Source: an uncultured Dehalococcoidales bacterium (GTDB lineage Bacteria > Chloroflexota > Dehalococcoidia > GIF9 > UBA5629). Taken from it: a stretch of 64,000 bases of DNA. The notes under the pieces are model-generated. The model saw only the letters and a list, made by a program, of their open reading frames with translations, made no database searches and was not told the DNA's origin. A program made the position numbers and the translations under genes. This document shows, piece by piece, positions 20,111 through 50,040 of this stretch; positions within the stretch are counted from its first letter, which is position 1, and every line of letters starts with the position of its first letter. The stretch is taken from assembly GCA_964549635.1 (NCBI GenBank), contig CAZJVJ010000002.1:40567-104566 (forward strand). The letters run 5' to 3'.

Positions 20111-20479
20111 ATGCCGCTTTATGAGTACTGGTGTAGCAATTGCCAACGCAAGGTCACGATATTTCACGTGACCTTAACTCAAGACTCGCCTATTTGTCCA
20201 AGATGTGGTAACAGCACCCTACGCCGGTTATTTTCTACCTTTTCCATACGTAGTAAAACATATAAAGATGTTTATGAAGATATCCTCTCCGATTCTAAGC
20301 TAACCAGGGGTATGTTGAGCAATGACCCGAGAGCTTTAGCCGAATGGAATAGGCGAATGAGTCAAGGTGAGGAAGTTGCTCCTGAATATAAAGAAATGCT
20401 TGAGCGGATGGAAAGAGGAGAGATGCCCACTGCGTTAGCTGGCACCGGTGCCGACGAGTCCTTTGAGGAATGTGAGTAA
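20111..20479 (+). CDS. FmdB-family zinc-ribbon protein (copy 1)
   Basis: N-terminal 'MPLYEYWCSNCQ...CPRCG' (CxxC-x16-CxxC) and an acidic C-terminal tail. Confidence 0.6.
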   Translation: MPLYEYWCSNCQRKVTIFHVTLTQDSPICPRCGNSTLRRLFSTFSIRSKTYKDVYEDILSDSKLTRGMLSNDPRALAEWNRRMSQGEEVAPEYKEMLERMERGEMPTALAGTGADESFEECE

Positions 20480-20483
20480 TACT

Positions 20484-20858
20484 ATGCCAGTTTATGAGTT
20501 TTACTGTTCAGCATGTGGTAAAAAGAGTAGCTTTTTTACAAGGACCGTCTTGACCTCTTTTGTGCCGAGTTGTACAAGCTGTGGTAGTCACGATTTGACT
20601 CGCATTATATCAACCTTCGCTTATCATAAGTCAATTAAAACCATTCATGAAGAGAGTGGCGAGCCGACTATGTATCCAAGTCCTGACTACTATAAGGATC
20701 CGCGTAACATAGGCAGGTGGGTGGAGAAGAGGTTTAAAGACATGGGGATGGAGATGCCTGATGAAATTCGGCAGAAGATTCAAGCTGCCAGAGAAGGTGT
20801 ACTACCAGAACCCTTGAAGGACTTACAAAGTGCCTCACCAGATGCTGCGTATCATTGA
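20484..20858 (+). CDS. FmdB-family zinc-ribbon protein (copy 2)
   Basis: 'MPVYEFYCSACG...CTSCG'. I prefer ATG 20484, 4 nt after the copy-1 stop, over the track start at 20448. Confidence 0.6.
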   Translation: MPVYEFYCSACGKKSSFFTRTVLTSFVPSCTSCGSHDLTRIISTFAYHKSIKTIHEESGEPTMYPSPDYYKDPRNIGRWVEKRFKDMGMEMPDEIRQKIQAAREGVLPEPLKDLQSASPDAAYH

Positions 20859-25954: not shown

Positions 25955-27397
25955 ATGGTTGGTATTAAGTCCTATGGCGCTTACATCCCGCGGTACAGAA
26001 TGAACCGCAATACTATCTTTGGAGCGGTGGGGTTTCTGGGTACATTTCCAACACCTGGCGAGAAAGCGGTTGCCAATCACGATGAGGATACCCTTAGCAT
26101 GGCGGTAGCTGCTGGGATCGACTGCATCGATGGGCTGAAAAGAGAAGTAATAGATGGTTTGTATCTTGCTACTACCAGTCAGCCATATGTGCTGAGACAA
26201 AACTCGGCGATAGTTGCTGTTGCTCTTGATTTGCAGCCTAATATAAGGACAGCTGATTTCATCGCCTCCAACAAGGCGGGTACTACTGCTCTCATTGCTG
26301 CCTTTGACGCTGTAAAGGGGGGTACCTCGAGCAATATTTTAGTCTGCGCTTCAGATTGCCGACTGAGCAAGCCTGGTGGTCCTCAGGAACATCTGTATGG
26401 TGACGGCGCTGCAGCTTTATGGGTAGCGAATGACGATGTAATTGCTACTTTCGAGGGTTTTTATTCTGTTTCCTACGATTTCCCGGACCGCTGGAAGGCA
26501 AGCACCGAGGACTTTGAACATGCTTGGGAAGATAGATTCATTCGGGACGAAGGCTATACAAAAATGATACCCGAAGCAATTGCTGGCCTACTTAAGAAGT
26601 ATAATTTGAACATAAGGGAATTTGCCAAAATTGCGTTTCCCGGTATTTATGCCAGAGAGCATGCCGGTATTCTCAAAAGACTGGGTGCAGAACCGGGCCA
26701 AAGTCAGGATACCTTAATTGACAAAGTTGGTGATACCGGGACAGCTTCACCCTTAATGATGCTTGTAGCTGCGCTAGAGGATGCCAAACCTGGAGACAAG
26801 ATTCTGGTTGCCAGCTTTGGTAACGGCAGTGATGCCCTGTTTTTCCAAGTGACCGAAAATATAAAGAACGTAGGCGAGAGGCGTGGAGTGAAGAAACATT
26901 TGGTTTCAAAAAAGGAGCTCACCAGCTATGAAAAATATCTGGCTTTCCGTAAGTTAGCGCCGATGGACGTTGGCCTTCGGGGTGAGGTAGGCATTCGCAC
27001 CCCAATGTCTGCACTATATAGGGAACGAAAGACGATCCTAGGCTTGGTTGGCTCCAGGTGTAAAAAGTGTGGCACTCCGCAATATCCACCTCAAAGAGTT
27101 TGCGTCAACCCTGATTGTGGATCTGTGGATGAGATGGAAGACTATCGCTTTTCAGATAAGAAGGGCGTTGTGTTTACTTATACTGGAGACAATTTAGCTG
27201 CAAGTATTGACCCACCGTCAATTTATGGTCTGGTGGATTTTGAAGCTGGTGGAAGGTACTGGTTTGATTTTACAGATTGCGACCTTGACTCAGTTAGAGT
27301 AGGTATACCTGTGGAGATGACCTTTCGCAAAAGGTATGCGGACGAACCAACAGGTGTATATGGTTATTCTTGGAAGGCAACACCTATACGTGACTAG
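25955..27397 (+). CDS. HMG-CoA-synthase-like thiolase-fold domain fused to a DUF35 zinc-ribbon/OB-fold domain; catalytic residues apparently substituted
   Basis: The N-terminus 'MVGIKSYGAYIPRYRM' and overall pattern are HMGCS-like. The C-terminal 'CKKCGTPQYPPQRVCVNPDCGS' plus OB region matches DUF35. The Glu/Cys/His positions read T74/N106/P229 by eye alignment to MvaS. Confidence 0.7.
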   Translation: MVGIKSYGAYIPRYRMNRNTIFGAVGFLGTFPTPGEKAVANHDEDTLSMAVAAGIDCIDGLKREVIDGLYLATTSQPYVLRQNSAIVAVALDLQPNIRTADFIASNKAGTTALIAAFDAVKGGTSSNILVCASDCRLSKPGGPQEHLYGDGAAALWVANDDVIATFEGFYSVSYDFPDRWKASTEDFEHAWEDRFIRDEGYTKMIPEAIAGLLKKYNLNIREFAKIAFPGIYAREHAGILKRLGAEPGQSQDTLIDKVGDTGTASPLMMLVAALEDAKPGDKILVASFGNGSDALFFQVTENIKNVGERRGVKKHLVSKKELTSYEKYLAFRKLAPMDVGLRGEVGIRTPMSALYRERKTILGLVGSRCKKCGTPQYPPQRVCVNPDCGSVDEMEDYRFSDKKGVVFTYTGDNLAASIDPPSIYGLVDFEAGGRYWFDFTDCDLDSVRVGIPVEMTFRKRYADEPTGVYGYSWKATPIRD

Positions 27398-27432
27398 AGT
27401 TGCCTAATTGAATAAAGTACGGAGGATACAAA

Positions 27433-28635
27433 ATGGCAGAAGGCATTAAAGACAAGGTAGCTATTATAGGTATGGGATGTACTAAATTTGGAGAACTGTG
27501 GGACAAGAGCGCTGAGGATTTGATGGTTGATGCGTTTAAGGAATGCATTGAGGATGCGGGGATAGATAAGAAAGACCTTCAGGCTGCTTGGTTTGGGGTA
27601 CACTTTGAAGAGCAAAGTGTCGGCAAAGGCGCCACATCCTTGGCGCTGGCACTTAAGTTGCCCTTTATTCCGGTCACACGGACAGAAAACTTTTGTGCTA
27701 CCGCAACCGAAGCTTTCAGAGGTGCCTGTTACGCGGTGGCTTCTGGGGCTTATGACATTGTGCTTGCGTTAGGCGTGGAGAAGCTCAAGGATACTGGATA
27801 TGGTGGACTTCCTGGTGGCCCTGGTTTGATGGGGACGAGAAATGCACTTATCATGCCCAAGCTGACTGCCCCGGGGGCTTTTGCTATGATGGCTACTAGA
27901 TATTTTGCCGTGTATGGGCTCAGTCCGGAGGAAGGCAAAAGGATGTTGGCTAAGGTGTCAGTCAAAAGTCATTACAATGGAGCCAGGAATCCAAAGGCAC
28001 ACCTGCGCCGCGAGATAACTGAAGAGCAGGTGGTTAACGCCCCTATTATTGCTTGGCCGCTTGGGCTTTTCGACTGCTGTGGAGTGAGTGATGGCGCGGC
28101 AGCAGCAATTGTTACTCGAGCCGACATGGCTAAAAATTTCAGGCCTGACCCTGTATATGTGAAAGCGCTCCAGGTTGCCGTAAGTTCAGGTGAAGAGTTG
28201 ATGTATACCAAGTGGGATGGCGCTCATGTTGAGACGGGGTACCGGGCCGGAGTCCTTGCTTACAAAGAGGCTGGTATCAAGAATCCGCGCCAGGAGATAA
28301 GTATGGCCGAGGTACACGACTGCTTTTCGATTACTGAAGCAGTAACAATGGAGGATTTGCAGTTCAGCCCCAGAGGAAAGGTTAAAGAAGATATTGAATC
28401 TGGTCGCTTTAATATTAATGGAGAGCAACCTATCCAGCCTGATGGTGGCTTGAAATGCTTTGGGCATCCTATTGGCGCTTCTGGGTTGAGAATGCTGTAT
28501 GAAATGTACAAGCAGTTACAGGGGAAGGCTCAGTTGCCCGAGCGCCAGATAAAGAATCCCAAACTGGGTCTCACTCATAACATGGGTGGCTTCCCGGCGA
28601 TGAATATAGTCAGCGTGGCTATCGTCGGACTGTAA
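27433..28635 (+). CDS. SCP2-type (nonspecific lipid-transfer-protein-like) thiolase
   Basis: 400 aa with nucleophile region 'ENFCATATEAF', 'VHDCFS' (the HDCF motif of SCP2 thiolases), 'CFGHPIGASG' and 'HNMGG'. Confidence 0.8.
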   Translation: MAEGIKDKVAIIGMGCTKFGELWDKSAEDLMVDAFKECIEDAGIDKKDLQAAWFGVHFEEQSVGKGATSLALALKLPFIPVTRTENFCATATEAFRGACYAVASGAYDIVLALGVEKLKDTGYGGLPGGPGLMGTRNALIMPKLTAPGAFAMMATRYFAVYGLSPEEGKRMLAKVSVKSHYNGARNPKAHLRREITEEQVVNAPIIAWPLGLFDCCGVSDGAAAAIVTRADMAKNFRPDPVYVKALQVAVSSGEELMYTKWDGAHVETGYRAGVLAYKEAGIKNPRQEISMAEVHDCFSITEAVTMEDLQFSPRGKVKEDIESGRFNINGEQPIQPDGGLKCFGHPIGASGLRMLYEMYKQLQGKAQLPERQIKNPKLGLTHNMGGFPAMNIVSVAIVGL

Positions 28636-28662: not shown

Positions 28663-29142
28663 ATGATGGCTGAAGGCTCCCTAATTACGGATGCACTTAA
28701 AAAGCTGATAGGTGTTCCTGGAGAGCCAGTTATTTTTAAAGTTGAAGAAGGAGCGATACAAAGGTATGCACAAGCTATAGGTGACCCTAATCCTTTATTC
28801 AACGATATAGAGAATGCCAGCAAGAACAAATATGGCAGGTTGATTTGCCCTCCAGGCTTTACCGGGTGGCCGATAAAGCCCGGATTTTCTATGTTTAAAC
28901 TGATTGATTCGTTGGTCAAAGCTGGGGCACCACCTCGGTTGCTGGACGGCGGTGTGGAATATGAATTTTTTGAGCCGATAGGGGCCGGAGATGTGCTAGT
29001 TGCTACCACAAAGGTTGCTGATATCACTGAACGTGAAACAAGAATGGGCAAGACCTTGTTTACCACTGTCGAGACGACCTTTGTCAACCAAAAGAATAAC
29101 AAGGTCATGCTAAAAAGCCGTTCCACGTTGATCCAATTTTAG
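28663..29142 (+). CDS. MaoC_dehydrat_N / FAS1-like hot-dog subunit (non-catalytic hydratase partner)
   Basis: 159 aa. 'FKVEEGAIQRYAQAIGDPNPLF' is typical of the N-terminal hot-dog half of (R)-hydratases. It lacks the hydratase-2 motif. Confidence 0.65.
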   Translation: MMAEGSLITDALKKLIGVPGEPVIFKVEEGAIQRYAQAIGDPNPLFNDIENASKNKYGRLICPPGFTGWPIKPGFSMFKLIDSLVKAGAPPRLLDGGVEYEFFEPIGAGDVLVATTKVADITERETRMGKTLFTTVETTFVNQKNNKVMLKSRSTLIQF

Positions 29143-29176: not shown

Positions 29177-29647
29177 ATGGCTAAGCAAGTTTATTATGAA
29201 GATGTTGAAGTGGGAACCGAAATACCCCCGCTAGCTAAAATTGCCACAACTCGGATGCTGGTTCAGTGGGCAGGAGCCAGTGGTGATTTTAACCCATTAC
29301 ATTATGAAGATGACTTTGCCAAAGCTATGGGTGTAGGTGCACCTATAGTGCACGGTGCACTCAAACGTGCCTGGCTTGGACAACTGATGACAGATTGGAT
29401 TGGTGAGGAGGGGGTGCTAAAAAAACTGTCATGCCAGTATCGTGGCATGGACTACCCGCGTAAGATGAAAACCATAGAAGAACCGCACGATGGTGAGACA
29501 TGGTGGTGCAAAGGTAGGGTGGTCAAGAAATATGAGGAGGGTGGCGAGCACCTGGTAGAGTGTGAAATCTGGGTAGAAAATGGTAAGGGGGAAAAGACGA
29601 CACCGGGTAAAGCCTTGGTTGCCCTACCATCAAGAGGCAAGAAATAA
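29177..29647 (+). CDS. MaoC-like (R)-specific enoyl-CoA hydratase catalytic subunit
   Basis: 156 aa with the hydratase-2 motif 'SGDFNPLHYEDDFAKAMG'. Confidence 0.8.
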   Translation: MAKQVYYEDVEVGTEIPPLAKIATTRMLVQWAGASGDFNPLHYEDDFAKAMGVGAPIVHGALKRAWLGQLMTDWIGEEGVLKKLSCQYRGMDYPRKMKTIEEPHDGETWWCKGRVVKKYEEGGEHLVECEIWVENGKGEKTTPGKALVALPSRGKK

Positions 29648-29758: not shown

Positions 29759-30538
29759 ATGGGAAAACTTGATGGAAAGGTAGCAGTTATTACCGGAGCG
29801 GCAAGGGGTATAGGCGAAGCTGATGCGGTATTGTTTGCCAAAGAGGGCGCTGCTGTTTTGTTGAGCGACATTGATGAAGCTCCGCTAAAGGAAGTGGTTC
29901 AGAAGATAAGGGCTGCTGGTGGAAAGGCCGAAGCTTGTGCCGGCGATGTTACGAAACCGGAGGATTGCCAGAGGATGATGGATATGGCAGTCGAGAAATT
30001 CGGCAAAATCGATATCCTAGTCAACAATGCCGGGCTTACCAGAGATGCCTTAATACATAAGATGACTGATGCCCAGTGGGACTTGTGCATCAACATTAAC
30101 CTTAAGGGGACTTTCAATTGCATTAGAGCTGCTTCCAAATATATGATGAAGGAAGGGCATAACGGAAGAATAATCAATGTTGCCTCTGTGGCCGGACTAA
30201 TGGGCAATGTAGGGCAGATAAACTATTCTGCGGCTAAGGCAGGTCTTATTGGGCTCACCAAAACCGTGGCCAGGGAATGGGGTAGATACGGTATTACTTG
30301 CAATGTTATAGCTTATGGTTTCGTTGATACGCGGTTGACAAGAGAGAAGGAAGTACAGCAAGAGGAAGTAGCTGGTGAACTAGTAGGTATACCAAAGAAA
30401 GTGAGGGATATGGTTCTTTTGCAAGTTAAGCCTATGACACCTGAAGATGCTGCCAAACCTGTACTTTTCTTGGCTTCTGATGATGCTGCTTTTATCACAG
30501 GCCAGGTATTGAACGTTTCAGCCGGAATGTATATGTAG
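29759..30538 (+). CDS. short-chain dehydrogenase/reductase (FabG-like 3-oxoacyl reductase / hydroxyacyl-CoA dehydrogenase)
   Basis: 259 aa with 'TGAARGIGEA', 'NNAG' and 'YSAAKAG'. Confidence 0.8.
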   Translation: MGKLDGKVAVITGAARGIGEADAVLFAKEGAAVLLSDIDEAPLKEVVQKIRAAGGKAEACAGDVTKPEDCQRMMDMAVEKFGKIDILVNNAGLTRDALIHKMTDAQWDLCININLKGTFNCIRAASKYMMKEGHNGRIINVASVAGLMGNVGQINYSAAKAGLIGLTKTVAREWGRYGITCNVIAYGFVDTRLTREKEVQQEEVAGELVGIPKKVRDMVLLQVKPMTPEDAAKPVLFLASDDAAFITGQVLNVSAGMYM

Positions 30539-30631
30539 TTTTACCATCTAGCCTGTTGGGGACATCGGGCTTATTGATGAGATAACAACTACGGGTGGGC
30601 AACAACCGAAATAAATATGAGGAGGCCTGAG

Positions 30632-31567
30632 ATGGCAAGGAGGCTGGAAGGTAAGGTAGCTGTGGTTACTGGTGCTGGGCGTGGTATTGGTAGGGCTGAG
30701 GCGTTGGCTTTAGCTGCCGAAGGGGCCAGGGTGGTGGTTAACGACTTTGGTGGTGCTGGTGATGGCACTGGTGCCTCTAAGGCTCCAGCAGGTGAGGTTG
30801 TCCAGGAGATTAAGAAACTTGGTGGCGAGGCCGTTGCTAATTATGACACTGTAGCCACTCCAGAAGGCGGGGAGAATATCATCAAGACCGCAATTGATGC
30901 TTTTGGTCGCATCGATATCCTAGTTAACAATGCCGGAATCCTTCGCGACCGCATGATTTTCAATATGAGCGAAGAGGAATGGGATGCGGTAATTAAAGTT
31001 CATTTGTATGGTACTTTCCATTGTACAAAACCGGCATGTGTCTATTTCAGGCAGCAGAGGAGTGGCAGGATAGTAAATACGTCCTCTACCTCAGGTTTAG
31101 GTAATATGGGACAGGCTAACTACAGTGCTGCCAAAGAAGGAATTGTTGGCTTTACTCGGACAGTAGCCAGGGACATGGGGAGGTATGGTGTAACGTGTAA
31201 CGCTATTCGCCCCAGTGCCGGAACAAGGCTGACGCTAACGCCGGAGCTGAGAGCTGCCTGGGAGAAGGCTAAGGCTGAAGGCTTGCGTCCTCAAGCAGGT
31301 GTCATAACCCTCGATGAACTTGAAAAAATGACCCCTGAGATGGTAGCTCCGCTGGTTGTATACCTGTGCACTGACGAAGCAGCGAACATAAACGGTTGCA
31401 CCTTCTGGGTGGGTGGTGGTGAGATAGGTATTTACTCGGAACCGGAAGTAAGAAGCCGGATATATAAAGAAGGTATATGGACAGTGGATGAACTGATTAA
31501 CATCGTTCCCAGAACTCTGGCTAGGGGACTGATAAATCCGGCACCTCCACAGACACCAAAGCAATAG
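30632..31567 (+). CDS. SDR resembling the (3R)-hydroxyacyl-CoA dehydrogenase domain of multifunctional enzyme type 2
   Basis: 'VVTGAGRGIGRAEALALAAEGARVVVNDFGG...GGEAVANYDTV...AFGRIDILVNNAGILRDR...GQANYSAAK' tracks the MFE-2/HSD17B4 N-terminal domain. I prefer ATG 30632 (GAGGAGG 6 nt upstream) over 30617. Confidence 0.7.
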   Translation: MARRLEGKVAVVTGAGRGIGRAEALALAAEGARVVVNDFGGAGDGTGASKAPAGEVVQEIKKLGGEAVANYDTVATPEGGENIIKTAIDAFGRIDILVNNAGILRDRMIFNMSEEEWDAVIKVHLYGTFHCTKPACVYFRQQRSGRIVNTSSTSGLGNMGQANYSAAKEGIVGFTRTVARDMGRYGVTCNAIRPSAGTRLTLTPELRAAWEKAKAEGLRPQAGVITLDELEKMTPEMVAPLVVYLCTDEAANINGCTFWVGGGEIGIYSEPEVRSRIYKEGIWTVDELINIVPRTLARGLINPAPPQTPKQ

Positions 31568-31772
31568 TTTGGTGATATACACACAGCATGGCTTGGCGCA
31601 CCAAGAAATTAGTCAGTGTAGCTAACAGCGATATCTGCGTTGGCGCTGCCTGCTTGTTAGTGTTTAGTTTCTGCTGGTAGGGGGCACTTGCTTTAGTTGA
31701 CATCGTGCTTCACTTAATGACTGGAGACTCAACAAAATGTCTCGTTAACACCAAGTTTTGGGAGGCTTTAGG

Positions 31773-32975
31773 ATGGATTTCAAACTGAGTGACAAAGAAA
31801 AAGCTTTAATAGAAGAGATTGCAAAATTTGCCAAGGAAGAGCTACCTGAAGATTTTGTCGGCACTCATCTAATTGACCAAGAGTACCCAAACTTCGAATT
31901 CGAAATATCTATGTCCAAAAAGCTGGCCCAGAAAGGGTGGCTAGTAATGAGCTGGCCGAAGGAGTATGGTGGGCAAGGAGCTTCTTTACTTGAACAAACA
32001 GTGTATGAAATGGAGATATCCTACTGGGGGATACCAGGAGCATGGATGGGCATAAGTGGCACACAGTGGGTGGGGCCATGCCTCATGCTGTTCGGAACAG
32101 AAGAACAGAAGAAGAAATACCTGCCGCTCATTGCCTCCGGTGATAAAGACGGTGTCTGGTGCACCGGGTACAGTGAGCCAAATGCAGGCTCTGACCTTGC
32201 CAATCTGCAGACACGAGCTGTGAGGGATGGTACCGATTACATAATCAATGGCCAGAAGGTATGGACTAGCAAGGCCCACCACGCAAGGTGGTGCTGGCTT
32301 CTGGCGAGGACAGACCCTAGTGCAGCGAAGAAACACCGTGGACTTAGCCTGTTTATAGTGGACATGAAGAGTCCGGGAATAACGGTCAACCCTATATTGA
32401 ACTACTACGGTCGGCATCACTTTAATGAGGTGTTTTTTGACAATGTTAAGATCCCGGCTTCTAATCTGGTTGGTGAGGAGAACAGGGGATGGTATCACCT
32501 GATGCAAGCTCTGGCATTTGAGAGACGAAGTGTGGCCCCCCTAGCTTATGGAAGTTCTAAGAGGTTGCTGGAATCACTGGTTAAGTATGCCAGAGAAACT
32601 CATTACCAGGGTAAGTTACTGAGCCAGGTTCCCGCTGTCCGTCATAAACTGGCTGAGCTGGCGATAGATGTGGAGGTGATTAAACTGTTTGCTTACCAGT
32701 TTACTTGGCGAGTGATGCAGGGTGCGATACCCGCCTATGAATCCTCTAGAAATAAAATCATGGGTGATGACGTGCTTCGAAAGGTGGCCATTTTGGGGGC
32801 AGATATATTAGGAGTATACTCGCAAGTTGATCCGAATTCGAAATGGGCCCGACTTAAGGGGGCCATTCAGGGGGCTTATCTCGGTTTTCCTGGCTCTATG
32901 ATTGCTGCGGGTACTGCTGAAATTGAAAGAAGCATTATAGCCCAGTTTAAGCTGGGCCTGCCGAAATCGTACTAG
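31773..32975 (+). CDS. acyl-CoA dehydrogenase, class A (IVD/LCAD-type catalytic Glu present)
   Basis: 'MDFKLSDKEKALIEE', 'ALAFERRSV' (Glu at the IVD position) and 'AAGTAEIERSII' (Ala at the MCAD Glu position). I prefer ATG 31773 after GGGAGG. Confidence 0.8.
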   Translation: MDFKLSDKEKALIEEIAKFAKEELPEDFVGTHLIDQEYPNFEFEISMSKKLAQKGWLVMSWPKEYGGQGASLLEQTVYEMEISYWGIPGAWMGISGTQWVGPCLMLFGTEEQKKKYLPLIASGDKDGVWCTGYSEPNAGSDLANLQTRAVRDGTDYIINGQKVWTSKAHHARWCWLLARTDPSAAKKHRGLSLFIVDMKSPGITVNPILNYYGRHHFNEVFFDNVKIPASNLVGEENRGWYHLMQALAFERRSVAPLAYGSSKRLLESLVKYARETHYQGKLLSQVPAVRHKLAELAIDVEVIKLFAYQFTWRVMQGAIPAYESSRNKIMGDDVLRKVAILGADILGVYSQVDPNSKWARLKGAIQGAYLGFPGSMIAAGTAEIERSIIAQFKLGLPKSY

Positions 32976-32994
32976 ACGTTTGTAGGAGGTCACC

Positions 32995-34149
32995 ATGGAT
33001 TTTGGTTTCACAGAAGAGCAAGAGATGCTCCGAACCATGGCAAGAGATTTTCTAGCCAATGAATGTCCCAAGTCGAAGGTTAGAGAGCTGGACAGAGATG
33101 AAAAGGGCTACGATCCTAAGATGTGGCGCGATATGGCAGAACTGGGGTGGATGGGACTTATCTTCCCGGAGAAGTATGGCGGGACTGGAGCCAAATTTGT
33201 AGATATGGTAGTTTTGATGGAAGAAATGGGGAGGAATATTGTACCGGGGCCTTTCTTTTCAACCATTGCCCTGTGCGCCTTACCCATCCTTGAATTCGGT
33301 ACGGAGGAACAGAAATCTAAATTTCTGCCAGAGATAATAAAAGGTGAAGCTATATGGACGTTAGCTCTGATGGAACCATCAGCTAGTTATGAGGCACCAG
33401 GGATAAATTTTAGTGCTTATTTGGAAGGAGATGAGTATGTACTAGAGGGTGAGAAGATTTTTGTTCCCGATGCTCACATAGCTGATTACGTTCTTGTGGT
33501 AGCCAGGACGGGCAAAGGTGAAACACCTGAAACGGGCATCGCGTTATTCATAGTCCAGGGCAAATCTCCAGCCCTCAAAATTGAAAGAATACCTACCATG
33601 GCTGGAGACAGGCAGTTTCAGGTTATTTTTGATAGAATCAAGGTATCTAGGAATGACATTCTGGGAATAGCAGGTAAGGGATGGGAAGTAGTGGACTTTA
33701 TTTTACAGAGAGCCGCTGTATTGAAATGTGCTGAGATTTCAGGCGCGTGTCAAGCTGTTCTTGATATGACCAGCACGTATGCCAGGGAGCGGATTCAGTT
33801 CGAACGTCCGATAGGAGCGTTTCAGGCGGTACAGCAAAAATTGGCTGACATGCTTATAGATGTTGAAGCGATTCAGTTCCTTGTTTACCAGGCGGCCTGC
33901 AGTATTGATGAAGGTAAACCATCCCAATTACTGATTTCAATAGCCAAAGCTAAAGCAAGCGAGGCTTATCAGAAGATTTGTATTGATGGCATTACCTCAC
34001 ATGGAGCGATAGGTTTTACCTGGGATCACGATATCGGGCTCTACTACAGGCGAGTCAAGGCAGCCCAGTTCACTGCTGGTGATATTGATCTGCATCGGGA
34101 GAAAATAGCTATTGAGCTGGGGCTTCAGCATGACACAGAGCTTAATTAG
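32995..34149 (+). CDS. acyl-CoA dehydrogenase family, class B (both known catalytic-base positions substituted)
   Basis: ACAD fold ('MDFGFTEEQEMLR', 'PEKYGGTG'), but 'DFILQRAAV' has Gln at the IVD position and 'FTAGDIDLHRE' has Ala at the MCAD position. Confidence 0.75.
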   Translation: MDFGFTEEQEMLRTMARDFLANECPKSKVRELDRDEKGYDPKMWRDMAELGWMGLIFPEKYGGTGAKFVDMVVLMEEMGRNIVPGPFFSTIALCALPILEFGTEEQKSKFLPEIIKGEAIWTLALMEPSASYEAPGINFSAYLEGDEYVLEGEKIFVPDAHIADYVLVVARTGKGETPETGIALFIVQGKSPALKIERIPTMAGDRQFQVIFDRIKVSRNDILGIAGKGWEVVDFILQRAAVLKCAEISGACQAVLDMTSTYARERIQFERPIGAFQAVQQKLADMLIDVEAIQFLVYQAACSIDEGKPSQLLISIAKAKASEAYQKICIDGITSHGAIGFTWDHDIGLYYRRVKAAQFTAGDIDLHREKIAIELGLQHDTELN

Positions 34150-48963: not shown

Positions 48964-50040
48964 ATGAAATACGGTTTTAAGGCATTAATTATCATAGCTG
49001 CGGTGGCACTTCTGATATTGCCGATGGCAGCCTGTGCTAAACAGCCGCCTGCTCCTCCTCCCCCTCCGCCCCCTCCAGCAGGGACAATTAGCGTGGAGCC
49101 AGCGAAGGTTGACTTCGAGCTTTTGAAGAAGTACTTCCCGCCGATTGCCAAGGCGTTGGGACTTCCTGAGGCTATGTCAGCAACGGTGCCGCATTTGGCT
49201 ATGCTGGCTGTTCCCGTGACATTCAAGGGGAGCGGCTGGCGGCCCAATGAGATAATCACAGTGGAGTTGGTCGTACCTCCCGATATTGAAATACCGGGGC
49301 TTGACCGGGCTCGCGGCGAGGATTCTGTTGGTATCGCTTATGCGACCGCAGACAGCGCAGGAAACTTTGAAGCGAAGCTGGAGAGGACGGCGACTATTGG
49401 GTTCATACTGCGCGGTGGATTTCAGCCGACACTGGCGATAGACCCAAAGACGCTAATCCCAGGAAACCCGTTGCCCAATGGCAGCTATACGTTGAGGGCT
49501 ATGGGTGATGACCCCCGTGCCGTAGCTACCACGACCTGGGTGTTAGAGCTAAAGCCACCAGCAGCGCCGCCAACTCCACCGGCAGAGAAGCCAGCTGAGC
49601 CTGGCAAACTTACGTTTGAGGCTGCAGAGTACACCAACGCTGAATTTGGTTTCTCAGTCAAGTATCCTAAGGAGTGGAAGCCTGAGAAGTCTGAAACGCT
49701 TCTATTCTATGCTGCAGCACCTACCATGGTTCCGGTTTTGTTTGTTGATGTTGAGACAGGGGCCACCTGTGCCGAAGCACTCAAGAAAATGCTTGAGGCT
49801 GCCGGCGGGACTGCCTTTAAAGTCCTCTCTGAAAAGGACAGCACTTTGGCCGATGGTACAAAGGCCTCAACAGTGACATTCGAAATATCGTTGAGGGGAT
49901 TCGCCGGCAAAGGCTTTGCACTGGGCACGAAAAAGGATGACAAGTGGATTATGGTTTCAGTTGGAACCGTGGAGATGCTGGCGAAGTATGATGAGGCTAA
50001 GTTCTCGGAGATAGTCCATACCCTGCAACTCAAGAAGTAA
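48964..50040 (+). CDS. two-domain lipoprotein of unknown function; its C-terminal domain is homologous to the C-terminal extension of the 34375 SBP
   Basis: Lipobox 'PMAAC', then an 8-Pro run, a beta-rich N-domain of about 160 aa, a Pro-rich linker, and a 137-aa C-domain (nt 49627-50037) ending 'KYDEAKFSEIVHTLQLKK'. The SBP C-terminus ends 'AYDEAKFSEIARTLEFKK'. Confidence 0.7.
   Translation: MKYGFKALIIIAAVALLILPMAACAKQPPAPPPPPPPPAGTISVEPAKVDFELLKKYFPPIAKALGLPEAMSATVPHLAMLAVPVTFKGSGWRPNEIITVELVVPPDIEIPGLDRARGEDSVGIAYATADSAGNFEAKLERTATIGFILRGGFQPTLAIDPKTLIPGNPLPNGSYTLRAMGDDPRAVATTTWVLELKPPAAPPTPPAEKPAEPGKLTFEAAEYTNAEFGFSVKYPKEWKPEKSETLLFYAAAPTMVPVLFVDVETGATCAEALKKMLEAAGGTAFKVLSEKDSTLADGTKASTVTFEISLRGFAGKGFALGTKKDDKWIMVSVGTVEMLAKYDEAKFSEIVHTLQLKK

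Follow-up and report, generated by a model that had tools for sequence, protein, structure and literature searches.

Proteins with the fold of hydroxymethylglutaryl-CoA (HMG-CoA) synthase (HMGCS or HMGS) that lack its catalytic tetrad have been described as parts of thiolase-type complexes. In the PhlACB acyltransferase, reported in 2018, PhlA carries Gly115 and Cys83 in place of the catalytic Cys and Glu, and PhlC is the sole catalytic subunit (PMC6392133). Liao et al. (Nat Commun 2026) solved the structure of MucABC and found the tetrad lost in both MucA and PhlA, while the interfacial CoA chamber is retained in the dead complexes PhlACB and MucABC; MucB alone was insoluble and inactive, and the archaeal thiolase alone was insoluble as well (PMC12960953). 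The same study mined 1,030 bacterial HMGS/ACAT/DUF35 loci, 1,001 of them outside biosynthetic clusters, and characterised a Pseudomonas fluorescens complex (PfACAT/HMGS-DUF35) made of a tetrad-less fused HMGS-DUF35 protein and an ACAT that keeps the Cys, HDxF and GHx motifs. This complex cleaved acetoacetyl-CoA and formed neither HMG-CoA nor acetoacetyl-CoA, and mutation of the HDxF His abolished the cleavage activity (PMC12960953). Ibero et al. (2020) described an 'HMG-CoA synthase', EGO55_13555, beside the thiolase EGO55_13550 in the oestrogen edc cluster; it belongs to a separate clade, is probably non-condensing and was left without a role (PMC7793797). Here we analyse a gene pair of this kind in a 64-kb stretch of DNA (64,000 nucleotides, hereafter the window) on contig CAZJVJ010000002.1 of an uncultured Dehalococcoidales bacterium. 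It consists of a fused pseudo-HMGCS/DUF35 gene and the gene of an SCP2-type 3-ketoacyl-CoA thiolase, and the fused protein probably acts as a non-catalytic partner of the adjoining intact thiolase. The architecture is already known, as one such pair was biochemically characterised in 2026 (PMC12960953), and the window pair is a further case. The statement of the preliminary description that no characterised example exists thus has to be withdrawn: PhlA (PMC6392133), MucA and PfACAT/HMGS-DUF35 (PMC12960953) are characterised, and the edc homologue had been flagged as non-condensing (PMC7793797).

The fused gene, its domains and the four tetrad sites lie at the following positions of the window.

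25955..27397, forward strand: fused pseudo-HMG-CoA synthase/DUF35 protein, an open reading frame (ORF) of 480 amino acids (aa), from Pfam, NCBIfam, PDB, AlphaFold2 and Foldseek
25955..26959, forward strand: HMGCS-like thiolase-fold domain without the catalytic tetrad, aa 1-335, from NF003274 (aa 1-334) and the phmmer match of aa 2-332 to 6esq_I
26174..26176, forward strand: T74 at the catalytic Glu site (E82), phmmer mapping to 6esq_I
26270..26272, forward strand: N106 at the nucleophilic Cys site (C114), phmmer mapping to 6esq_I
26639..26641, forward strand: P229 at the catalytic His site (H238), phmmer mapping to 6esq_I
26732..26734, forward strand: D260 at the tetrad Asn site (N270), phmmer mapping to 6esq_I
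27044..27124, forward strand: DUF35 rubredoxin-like zinc ribbon, aa 364-390, with C369, C372, C383 and C388 (CKKC...CVNPDC), PF12172
27134..27385, forward strand: DUF35 OB-fold domain, aa 394-477, from PF01796, 6esq_E and the beta-strands of the AlphaFold2 model

The HMGCS-like part of the fused protein aligns with HMGCS from end to end, yet it stays below the threshold of each of the three curated HMGCS models scored. The NCBIfam HMG-CoA synthase model NF003274 covers aa 1-334 with its positions 2-343 of 347 at 221.4 bits (cutoff 244), and TIGR00748 and TIGR01835 give 143 bits (cutoff 353) and 56 bits (cutoff 360). Against the PDB, the N-terminal 330 residues match a PhlA homologue best (9skh_A, 3.8e-34), together with the archaeal HMGCS 6esq_I (9.4e-34), PhlA (5m3k_A) and MucA (9vbo_A). 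Pfam finds ACP_syn_III_C, the C-terminal domain of KAS-III, in the ORF, together with zf-ChsH2 at aa 364-390 and OB_ChsH2_C at aa 401-458, and the C-terminal 125 residues (aa 355-479) match the DUF35 chain 6esq_E at 8e-17. An AlphaFold2 model built from an alignment of 61 sequences reached a predicted local distance difference test score (pLDDT) of 91 and a predicted TM-score (pTM) of 0.92. Its best structural match in Foldseek is again 6esq_I, with a TM-score of 0.91 on the target and a root-mean-square deviation of 2.3 Å, followed by PhlA and MucA at about 0.87 and bacterial MvaS at about 0.77. The predicted fold is that of an HMGCS-type thiolase-fold protein. Both the likeness to HMGCS along the whole length and the C-terminal zinc ribbon with OB fold, which had been proposed by eye, are borne out by these profile and structure matches.

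We mapped the tetrad with a script that parsed the phmmer alignment to 6esq_I. The residues E82, C114, H238 and N270 of the 6ESQ HMGCS correspond to T74, N106, P229 and D260 of the fused protein; the same 6ESQ numbering was used for the tetrad mutant mut4 (E82C/C114G/H238Q/N270D; PMC12960953). The register of this mapping is sound because the NCBIfam profile, the pairwise phmmer alignment and the fold match agree. The three replacements read earlier by eye, with Thr, Asn and Pro in place of Glu, Cys and His, are reproduced down to the exact codon coordinates, and proper alignments place no Cys, Glu or His at the catalytic sites. To these we add a fourth substitution, the Asn-to-Asp change at D260, which is also found at the tetrad Asn site of PhlA. 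Since the tetrad is gone, the fused protein would not be able to make HMG-CoA or to channel it into the mevalonate pathway. We also considered a true HMGCS whose register had been shifted. It is ruled out by the agreement of two independent sequence alignments with the structural match; indeed, no Cys, Glu or His is conserved near the tetrad sites, and only 2 of 81 relatives have a Cys immediately before the nucleophile site.

These relatives come from a scan of one genome per GTDB species, which gave 80 loci with full-length fused relatives of 37-89% identity; residues at the tetrad sites were counted in 81 aligned sequences. The Glu site holds no Glu (0/81) and mostly Thr (71/81). At the Cys site, where the preliminary description had asked how widespread Asn is, there is no Cys (0/81), Asn is found in 4 sequences, Leu in 37 and Thr in 23, and the rest have Ala, Val, Ser, Ile or Pro. 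His is absent from its site (0/81), and the Asn site carries Asp in 52 sequences and Asn in 10. An exhaustive HMMER search over 1.84 billion representatives of 50%-identity clusters returned 3292 matches at E<1e-3 and 627 at E<1e-30. The 134 full-length representatives among them again have neither Glu nor Cys at the respective sites (0/134 each), with His at its site in a single one. Tetrad loss is thus family-wide and ancestral. The residue at the former nucleophile site differs (Asn, Thr, Ala or Ser) even between relatives that are more than 75% identical, and such free variation is what one would expect if catalysis no longer constrained the site. Each of the four zinc cysteines is present in 80-81 of the 81 relatives and in 126-131 of the 134 representatives. 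One member on a Sphingomonas paeninsulae plasmid (L081:9001-10446) has lost three of the four (C-T...S...D) next to an intact thiolase, so that zinc binding may be dispensable in some lineages.

The carriers belong to Dehalococcoidia, Desulfobacterota, Syntrophaceae, Bacillota (including the cultured Peribacillus, Neobacillus and Cytobacillus), Binatia and bins of Ca. Methanolliviera. In the last group the fused relatives show 59-61% identity (L024, L029), and a representative named Methanomethyliaceae (P0002) shows 88%; these relatives in archaeal alkane- or methyl-metabolising bins would reflect either lateral transfer or binning contamination. No Pseudomonas member appeared among the matches of the homologue searches, of which the one seeded with the Azoarcus KH32C member gave Aromatoleum and Variovorax names.

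The dead domain is not decaying. Compared with close Dehalococcoidia loci, the ratio of nonsynonymous to synonymous substitution rates (dN/dS) is about 0.03-0.06 for the HMGS-like domain, 0.02-0.055 for the DUF35 part and 0.02-0.03 for the thiolase; with dS near saturation these ratios are approximate, though the gap from neutrality is still large. The HMGS-like domain is therefore under strong purifying selection. A decaying relic or pseudogene, which we also considered, is ruled out by these values together with the conservation across phyla.

Selection nearly as strong as that on the thiolase also raises the question of whether the HMGS-like domain is dead at all. It might have taken on a new catalytic or substrate-delivering role, for example in the binding of bulky acyl groups, in a KS-Q-like decarboxylation or in the docking of the dehydrogenase or hydratase. 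About 40 columns are invariant over the alignment of 61 diverse members, among them R15, D43-E44-D45, Y78, E145, R342 and R356, and this would fit such a role. So would the natural fusions to short-chain dehydrogenase/reductase (SDR) and SCP2 lipid-binding domains and the CoA chamber that PhlACB and MucABC keep at their interface. In 14 of the 134 representatives the former nucleophile site (window residue 106) is occupied by Gln, while Leu is the commonest residue there. Gln for Cys is the substitution found in decarboxylating KS-Q domains, and these Gln residues speak for the new role as well. However, none of the four catalytic positions conserves a plausible nucleophile or base, many invariant residues recur in true HMGCS in the pairwise alignment and may be structural, and the substrate contacts in PhlACB come from PhlC residues only (PMC6392133). 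We consider a new function of this kind unlikely.

The fusions themselves are seen in three cluster representatives. P0123 (911 aa) joins HMGS-DUF35 to an MFE-2-type SDR and an SCP2 domain, P0157 (800 aa) joins it to an SDR, and P0124 (722 aa) to two SCP2 domains. The second SDR of the window (SDR2, below) shares 50% identity with the SDR of P0123. Fusions of the P0123 type physically tie the dead HMGS-DUF35 to the step that comes before it in the pathway and to lipid binding. A further representative, P0201 (723 aa), is an apparent chimera with ATP-grasp and molybdopterin domains and was left out of the evidence.

The partner gene follows the fused gene on the same strand after a spacer of 35 nucleotides (nt), in which a GGAGG lies 8 nt before the thiolase ATG.

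27433..28635, forward strand: SCP2-type 3-ketoacyl-CoA thiolase, 400 aa, with intact catalytic residues, from NF004810, PDB matches and motifs
27694-27696, forward strand: thiolase Cys88 in NFCAT, by motif
28315-28326, forward strand: thiolase HDCF, aa 295-298, by motif
28462-28470, forward strand: thiolase GHP, aa 344-346, by motif

The thiolase scores 630 bits on NF004810 (cutoff 403), and its best PDB match is the thiolase of 6ESQ (6esq_A, 2e-60), followed by SCP2-type thiolases and BbsB. That it keeps its nucleophile Cys, HDCF and GHP had been noted at the outset and is confirmed. The same holds across the family: none of the 62 full-length partner thiolases has lost its Cys, HDCF, GHP or GGLK motif. 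Sixty-six loci extend far enough downstream to be judged. In 61 of these the thiolase gene is the immediate downstream neighbour of the fused gene and has the same orientation; the median gap is about 26 nt, and some of the genes overlap. The thiolase is consistently the better conserved of the two proteins (for example 95% versus 89%, or 53% versus 40%).

The intact HDCF bears on two rival explanations. Because a PhlA homologue is the best PDB match of the HMGS-like domain and the tetrad loss including the N-to-D change is common to both, the pair might be a Friedel-Crafts C-acyltransferase of the PhlACB/MucABC type that acts on a small-molecule acceptor in secondary metabolism. The HDxF motif is, however, lost in PhlC and MucB (PMC12960953) and kept in all 62 partner thiolases, and DUF35 is fused here instead of being separate. 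Moreover, no polyketide synthase (PKS) or nonribosomal peptide synthetase (NRPS) genes turned up when the large ORFs of the 64-kb window were scanned with Pfam, and the context is one of beta-oxidation. An acyltransferase is thus very unlikely. In the second, the thiolase-fold partner would be an Ltp2/Sal-type retro-aldolase that docks onto DUF35, as happens when steroid side chains are cleaved. The combination of DUF35, an SCP2-type thiolase fold, a MaoC pair and paired acyl-CoA dehydrogenases indeed resembles igr/ChsH1-ChsH2-Ltp2, and 6ok1 is among the weaker PDB matches. Ltp2-type aldolases are not known to carry the thiolase nucleophile. What defines an Ltp2/Sal system is a thiolase-fold protein without nucleophile that is bound to a MaoC-DUF35 hydratase (in part after PMC8913865). 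Here Cys88, HDCF and GHP are kept, as in all 62 partners, DUF35 is joined to the HMGS-like domain and not to MaoC, and an MFE-2-type dehydrogenase is present that would make a 3-oxo substrate for thiolysis, all of which makes a retro-aldolase extremely unlikely.

This dehydrogenase is encoded in the operon downstream of the pair.

28663..29142, forward strand: MaoC-family hot-dog subunit (HadA-like, FAS1_DH_region), from Pfam and NCBIfam, syntenic in close relatives
29177..29647, forward strand: MaoC dehydratase subunit (HadB-like), probable (R)-specific enoyl-CoA hydratase, from Pfam and NCBIfam, syntenic in close relatives
29759..30538, forward strand: short-chain dehydrogenase/reductase 1, from Pfam
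30617..31567, forward strand: MFE-2-type (3R)-hydroxyacyl-CoA dehydrogenase (SDR2), from PDB matches
31758..32975, forward strand: acyl-CoA dehydrogenase 1, from Pfam
32995..34149, forward strand: acyl-CoA dehydrogenase 2, from Pfam

SDR2 matches the (3R)-hydroxyacyl-CoA dehydrogenase of MFE-2 best (2et6_A, 3.6e-103) and also HSD17B4 (1zbq/1gz6). Read by eye, both dehydrogenases at 31758-34149 carry Ala at the MCAD-type catalytic Glu site of 'YEGT' ('IAAGTAEIER' and 'FTAGDIDLHR'); they may be of the IVD/LCAD type, or the two may assemble into a heteromer as in the steroid FadE pairs. Judged from the gene content, the surrounding genes make up an MFE-2-like, (R)-specific beta-oxidation set, and close relatives preserve the whole gene order of the operon. 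More distant loci vary this theme. In Peribacillus the neighbours are a crotonase, two acyl-CoA dehydrogenases, an HMG-CoA-lyase-like gene, MaoC, SDR and electron-transfer flavoprotein (ETF) genes. In Desulfobacteraceae they are ligases, an acyl-CoA dehydrogenase, methylmalonyl-CoA mutase, an alcohol dehydrogenase and an aldehyde:ferredoxin oxidoreductase. SDR and MaoC genes accompany the fused/thiolase pair in Sphingomonas, a CoA-transferase, a MaoC pair, SDR and ETF do so in Azoarcus KH32C, and the locus of Novosphingobium sp. ES2-1 has the gene order of the oestrogen edc operon.

In the window the pair belongs to an acyl-CoA catabolic island of about 37 kb (22922-59864); the remainder consists of housekeeping genes. 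Upstream of the pair lie an FMN (flavin mononucleotide) reductase gene and the subunits of an ADP-forming acetyl-CoA synthetase, whose alpha and beta genes are convergent with an 18-nt overlap. Further downstream, the island holds two Liv-type ATP-binding cassette (ABC) systems, which have three binding proteins between them, two AMP-forming ligases, a BKACE enzyme, a crotonase, the acyl-CoA carboxylase subunits (a carboxyltransferase and a biotin carboxylase) and three acyl-CoA dehydrogenases, which with the two of the operon make five. Two further features of the window may be recorded here. An ORF of 358 aa without Pfam match (48964-50040) sits between transporter genes in the only stretch of raised G+C (0.545 versus about 0.46). 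At 20111-20858, tandem and slightly overlapping ORFs of 122 and 136 aa both open with a CxxC...CxxC zinc ribbon (MPLYEYWCSNC and MPVYEFYCSAC) and look like a duplicated small regulatory zinc-ribbon protein.

The same gene set could in principle run in the biosynthetic direction, with the thiolase and DUF35 as the condensing ketothiolase (KT)/DUF35 core of a CoA-dependent reverse-beta-oxidation fatty-acid synthase and the dead HMGS in the place of a downstream enzyme. Thiolases can work in both directions, an anaerobic host is probable, and the operon has the enzyme types (SDR reductase, MaoC dehydratase) that assemble on KT/DUF35 in Sulfolobus acidocaldarius (bioRxiv 10.1101/2024.07.05.601840). 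On the other hand, the operon encodes acyl-CoA dehydrogenases instead of enoyl reductases of the medium-chain dehydrogenase/reductase (MDR) type, and the genes that flank it encode uptake ABC systems, AMP-forming acyl-CoA ligases and the ADP-forming acetyl-CoA synthetase subunits. In addition, relatives occur in degradation clusters such as the edc-like oestrogen cluster (PMC7793797), and the P. fluorescens complex failed to condense acetyl-CoA (PMC12960953). Synthesis by this operon is accordingly improbable.

Taken together, it is quite likely that the pair is a heteromeric SCP2-type 3-ketoacyl-CoA thiolase which ends an (R)-specific, MFE-2-like beta-oxidation and in which the pseudo-HMGS-DUF35 protein is non-catalytic, gives structure and closes the chamber. 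The product of 25955-27397 would be the non-catalytic and that of 27433-28635 the catalytic subunit. By analogy with the dodecamers 6ESQ, PhlACB and MucABC, DUF35 would bridge the thiolase dimer to the HMGS-like dimer, and the thiolase would depend for its solubility and correct shape on the HMGS-like fold, which would also close the shared interfacial CoA-binding chamber. All chemistry would then take place in the thiolase, where Cys88, together with the HDCF and GHP residues, would cleave the C-C bond thiolytically. The acyl-CoA dehydrogenases would act first, followed by the MaoC hydratase pair, the MFE-2-type 3-hydroxyacyl-CoA dehydrogenase and, as the last step, the thiolase pair. Tetrad loss, fold, family conservation, purifying selection, adjacency and context come directly from our analysis; the scaffold role and the thiolytic direction we infer. 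The published biochemistry of the P. fluorescens complex, MucB, the archaeal thiolase and PhlA supports the partner model (PMC12960953, PMC6392133). The idea of the preliminary description, a dead HMGCS-DUF35 as partner of a degradative thiolase, is hence strengthened by the family-wide tetrad loss, the zinc ribbon, selection, adjacency, the catabolic contexts and the P. fluorescens data (PMC12960953).

Several points weigh against this interpretation. The thiolase does not adjoin the fused gene in 5 of the 66 loci, the dN/dS ratios are approximate, and the P. fluorescens complex is likened to the window pair by architecture and motifs, not by a measured alignment. The invariant residues could mark a binding or even a catalytic function. 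Finally, both the physical complex of this protein pair and a bulky or methyl-branched acyl-CoA substrate are what we infer. The MaoC heteromer, the paired acyl-CoA dehydrogenases, the SCP2 fusions, the nearby carboxylase and crotonase and the steroid-cluster relatives fit bulky or methyl-branched acyl-CoAs, yet they are no proof.

One may speculate further that a prokaryotic beta-oxidation metabolon is organised around the pseudo-HMGS-DUF35 protein, which would provide an acyl/CoA-binding chamber for bulky or methyl-branched 3-oxoacyl-CoA, dock the MFE-2-type dehydrogenase and the MaoC hydratase and channel the substrate to the thiolase. This extension is tentative, and we hold it for possible rather than probable; it stays open because of the MFE-2-type SDR/SCP2 fusions and the strong selection on the dead domain. 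If true, the metabolon would mirror, in the degradative direction, the archaeal complexes of thiolase/HMGCS and of the KT/DUF35 fatty-acid synthase.

Beyond published work, the present data depict the family as ancient, very large and strongly selected, with a fixed place in beta-oxidation operons and with fusions to MFE-2-type dehydrogenase and SCP2 domains. Genome pipelines label its members 'hydroxymethylglutaryl-CoA synthase', which suggests a mevalonate pathway where this gene encodes none. Once the family is read as partners of thiolases without catalysis of their own, metabolic reconstructions of Dehalococcoidia, sulfate reducers, Binatia and others can be corrected, and the unassigned EGO55_13555 of the oestrogen edc cluster gains a role (PMC7793797). 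In the anaerobic-degradation literature we found no work that names an HMGS-DUF35 fusion; only steroid, Bbs and Phl work came up.

How the pair relates to the known systems can now be stated. The archaeal 6ESQ complex gives the best or near-best matches for all three modules, and its genes are likewise encoded together; unlike in 6ESQ, the HMGCS of the window is tetrad-less, DUF35 is fused to the HMGS-like domain and the context is catabolic. PhlACB (Pseudomonas protegens; 5M3K/5MG5) and MucABC (Streptococcus macacae; 9VBO/9VBT) combine a dead HMGS-like subunit with DUF35 and a thiolase-fold catalytic subunit. They too have lost the tetrad, including the N-to-D change, and they require the non-catalytic subunits for solubility and activity. 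Their thiolase-like subunit, however, lacks HDxF and acylates small molecules, whereas the window thiolase has HDCF; their separate DUF35 and their location in antibiotic gene clusters do not apply to the window pair either.

Among degradative systems, the edc cluster of Novosphingobium (Caenibius) tardaugens has an adjoining thiolase and non-canonical 'HMG-CoA synthase' together with SDR, acyl-CoA dehydrogenase, enoyl-CoA hydratase and lipid-transfer/DUF35 genes. The equivalent pair of Novosphingobium sp. ES2-1 (L082), which is linked to EGO55_13555 by gene order and annotation and not by sequence comparison, is a tetrad-less fused HMGS-DUF35 with a thiolase that keeps Cys, HDCF and GHP. The edc-type relative is about 31% identical to the window protein, and edc belongs to a pathway for the steroid A/B rings whose P450, dioxygenase-type and 2-oxoacid oxidoreductase genes are absent from the window. 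In BbsAB, ChsH2(DUF35)/Ltp2 and Shy/Sal, a DUF35 module binds and activates its SCP2-type partner with thiolase fold, and the pathways resemble beta-oxidation. BbsB and the window thiolase both use HDxF, whereas the Ltp2 and Sal enzymes are aldolases. BbsA is a free-standing DUF35 protein, and in ChsH2/Shy DUF35 is joined to MaoC, in contrast to its fusion with the HMGS-like domain here, and the window pair is far below the NCBIfam cutoffs for BbsA (NF053627, 19.7 bits, cutoff 250) and BbsB (NF053628, 135.4 bits, cutoff 750). The peroxisomal MFE-2/SCPx system uses the same enzyme types as the window, namely an (R)-specific hydratase-2 (MaoC), an MFE-2-type dehydrogenase and an SCP2-type thiolase, and some fused relatives carry SCP2 domains as this system does. 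The window proteins are nevertheless separate and prokaryotic, and their thiolase has a pseudo-HMGS-DUF35 partner that is absent from SCPx.

PfACAT/HMGS-DUF35 shares with the window pair the HMGS-DUF35 fusion, the tetrad loss, the adjoining thiolase with Cys, HDxF and GHx and the absence of PKS/NRPS neighbours, though it comes from another phylum than the Dehalococcoidia-type genome of the window. Its authors regard it as a pathway-less evolutionary intermediate (PMC12960953), while the window pair stands in a complete (R)-specific beta-oxidation operon. The size and age of the family, the selection on it, the fixed operon context and the fusions to MFE-2-type dehydrogenase and SCP2 domains therefore point, contrary to that view, to the fused HMGS-DUF35/thiolase pair as a regular, widespread form of degradative thiolase and not as an evolutionary intermediate or leftover.

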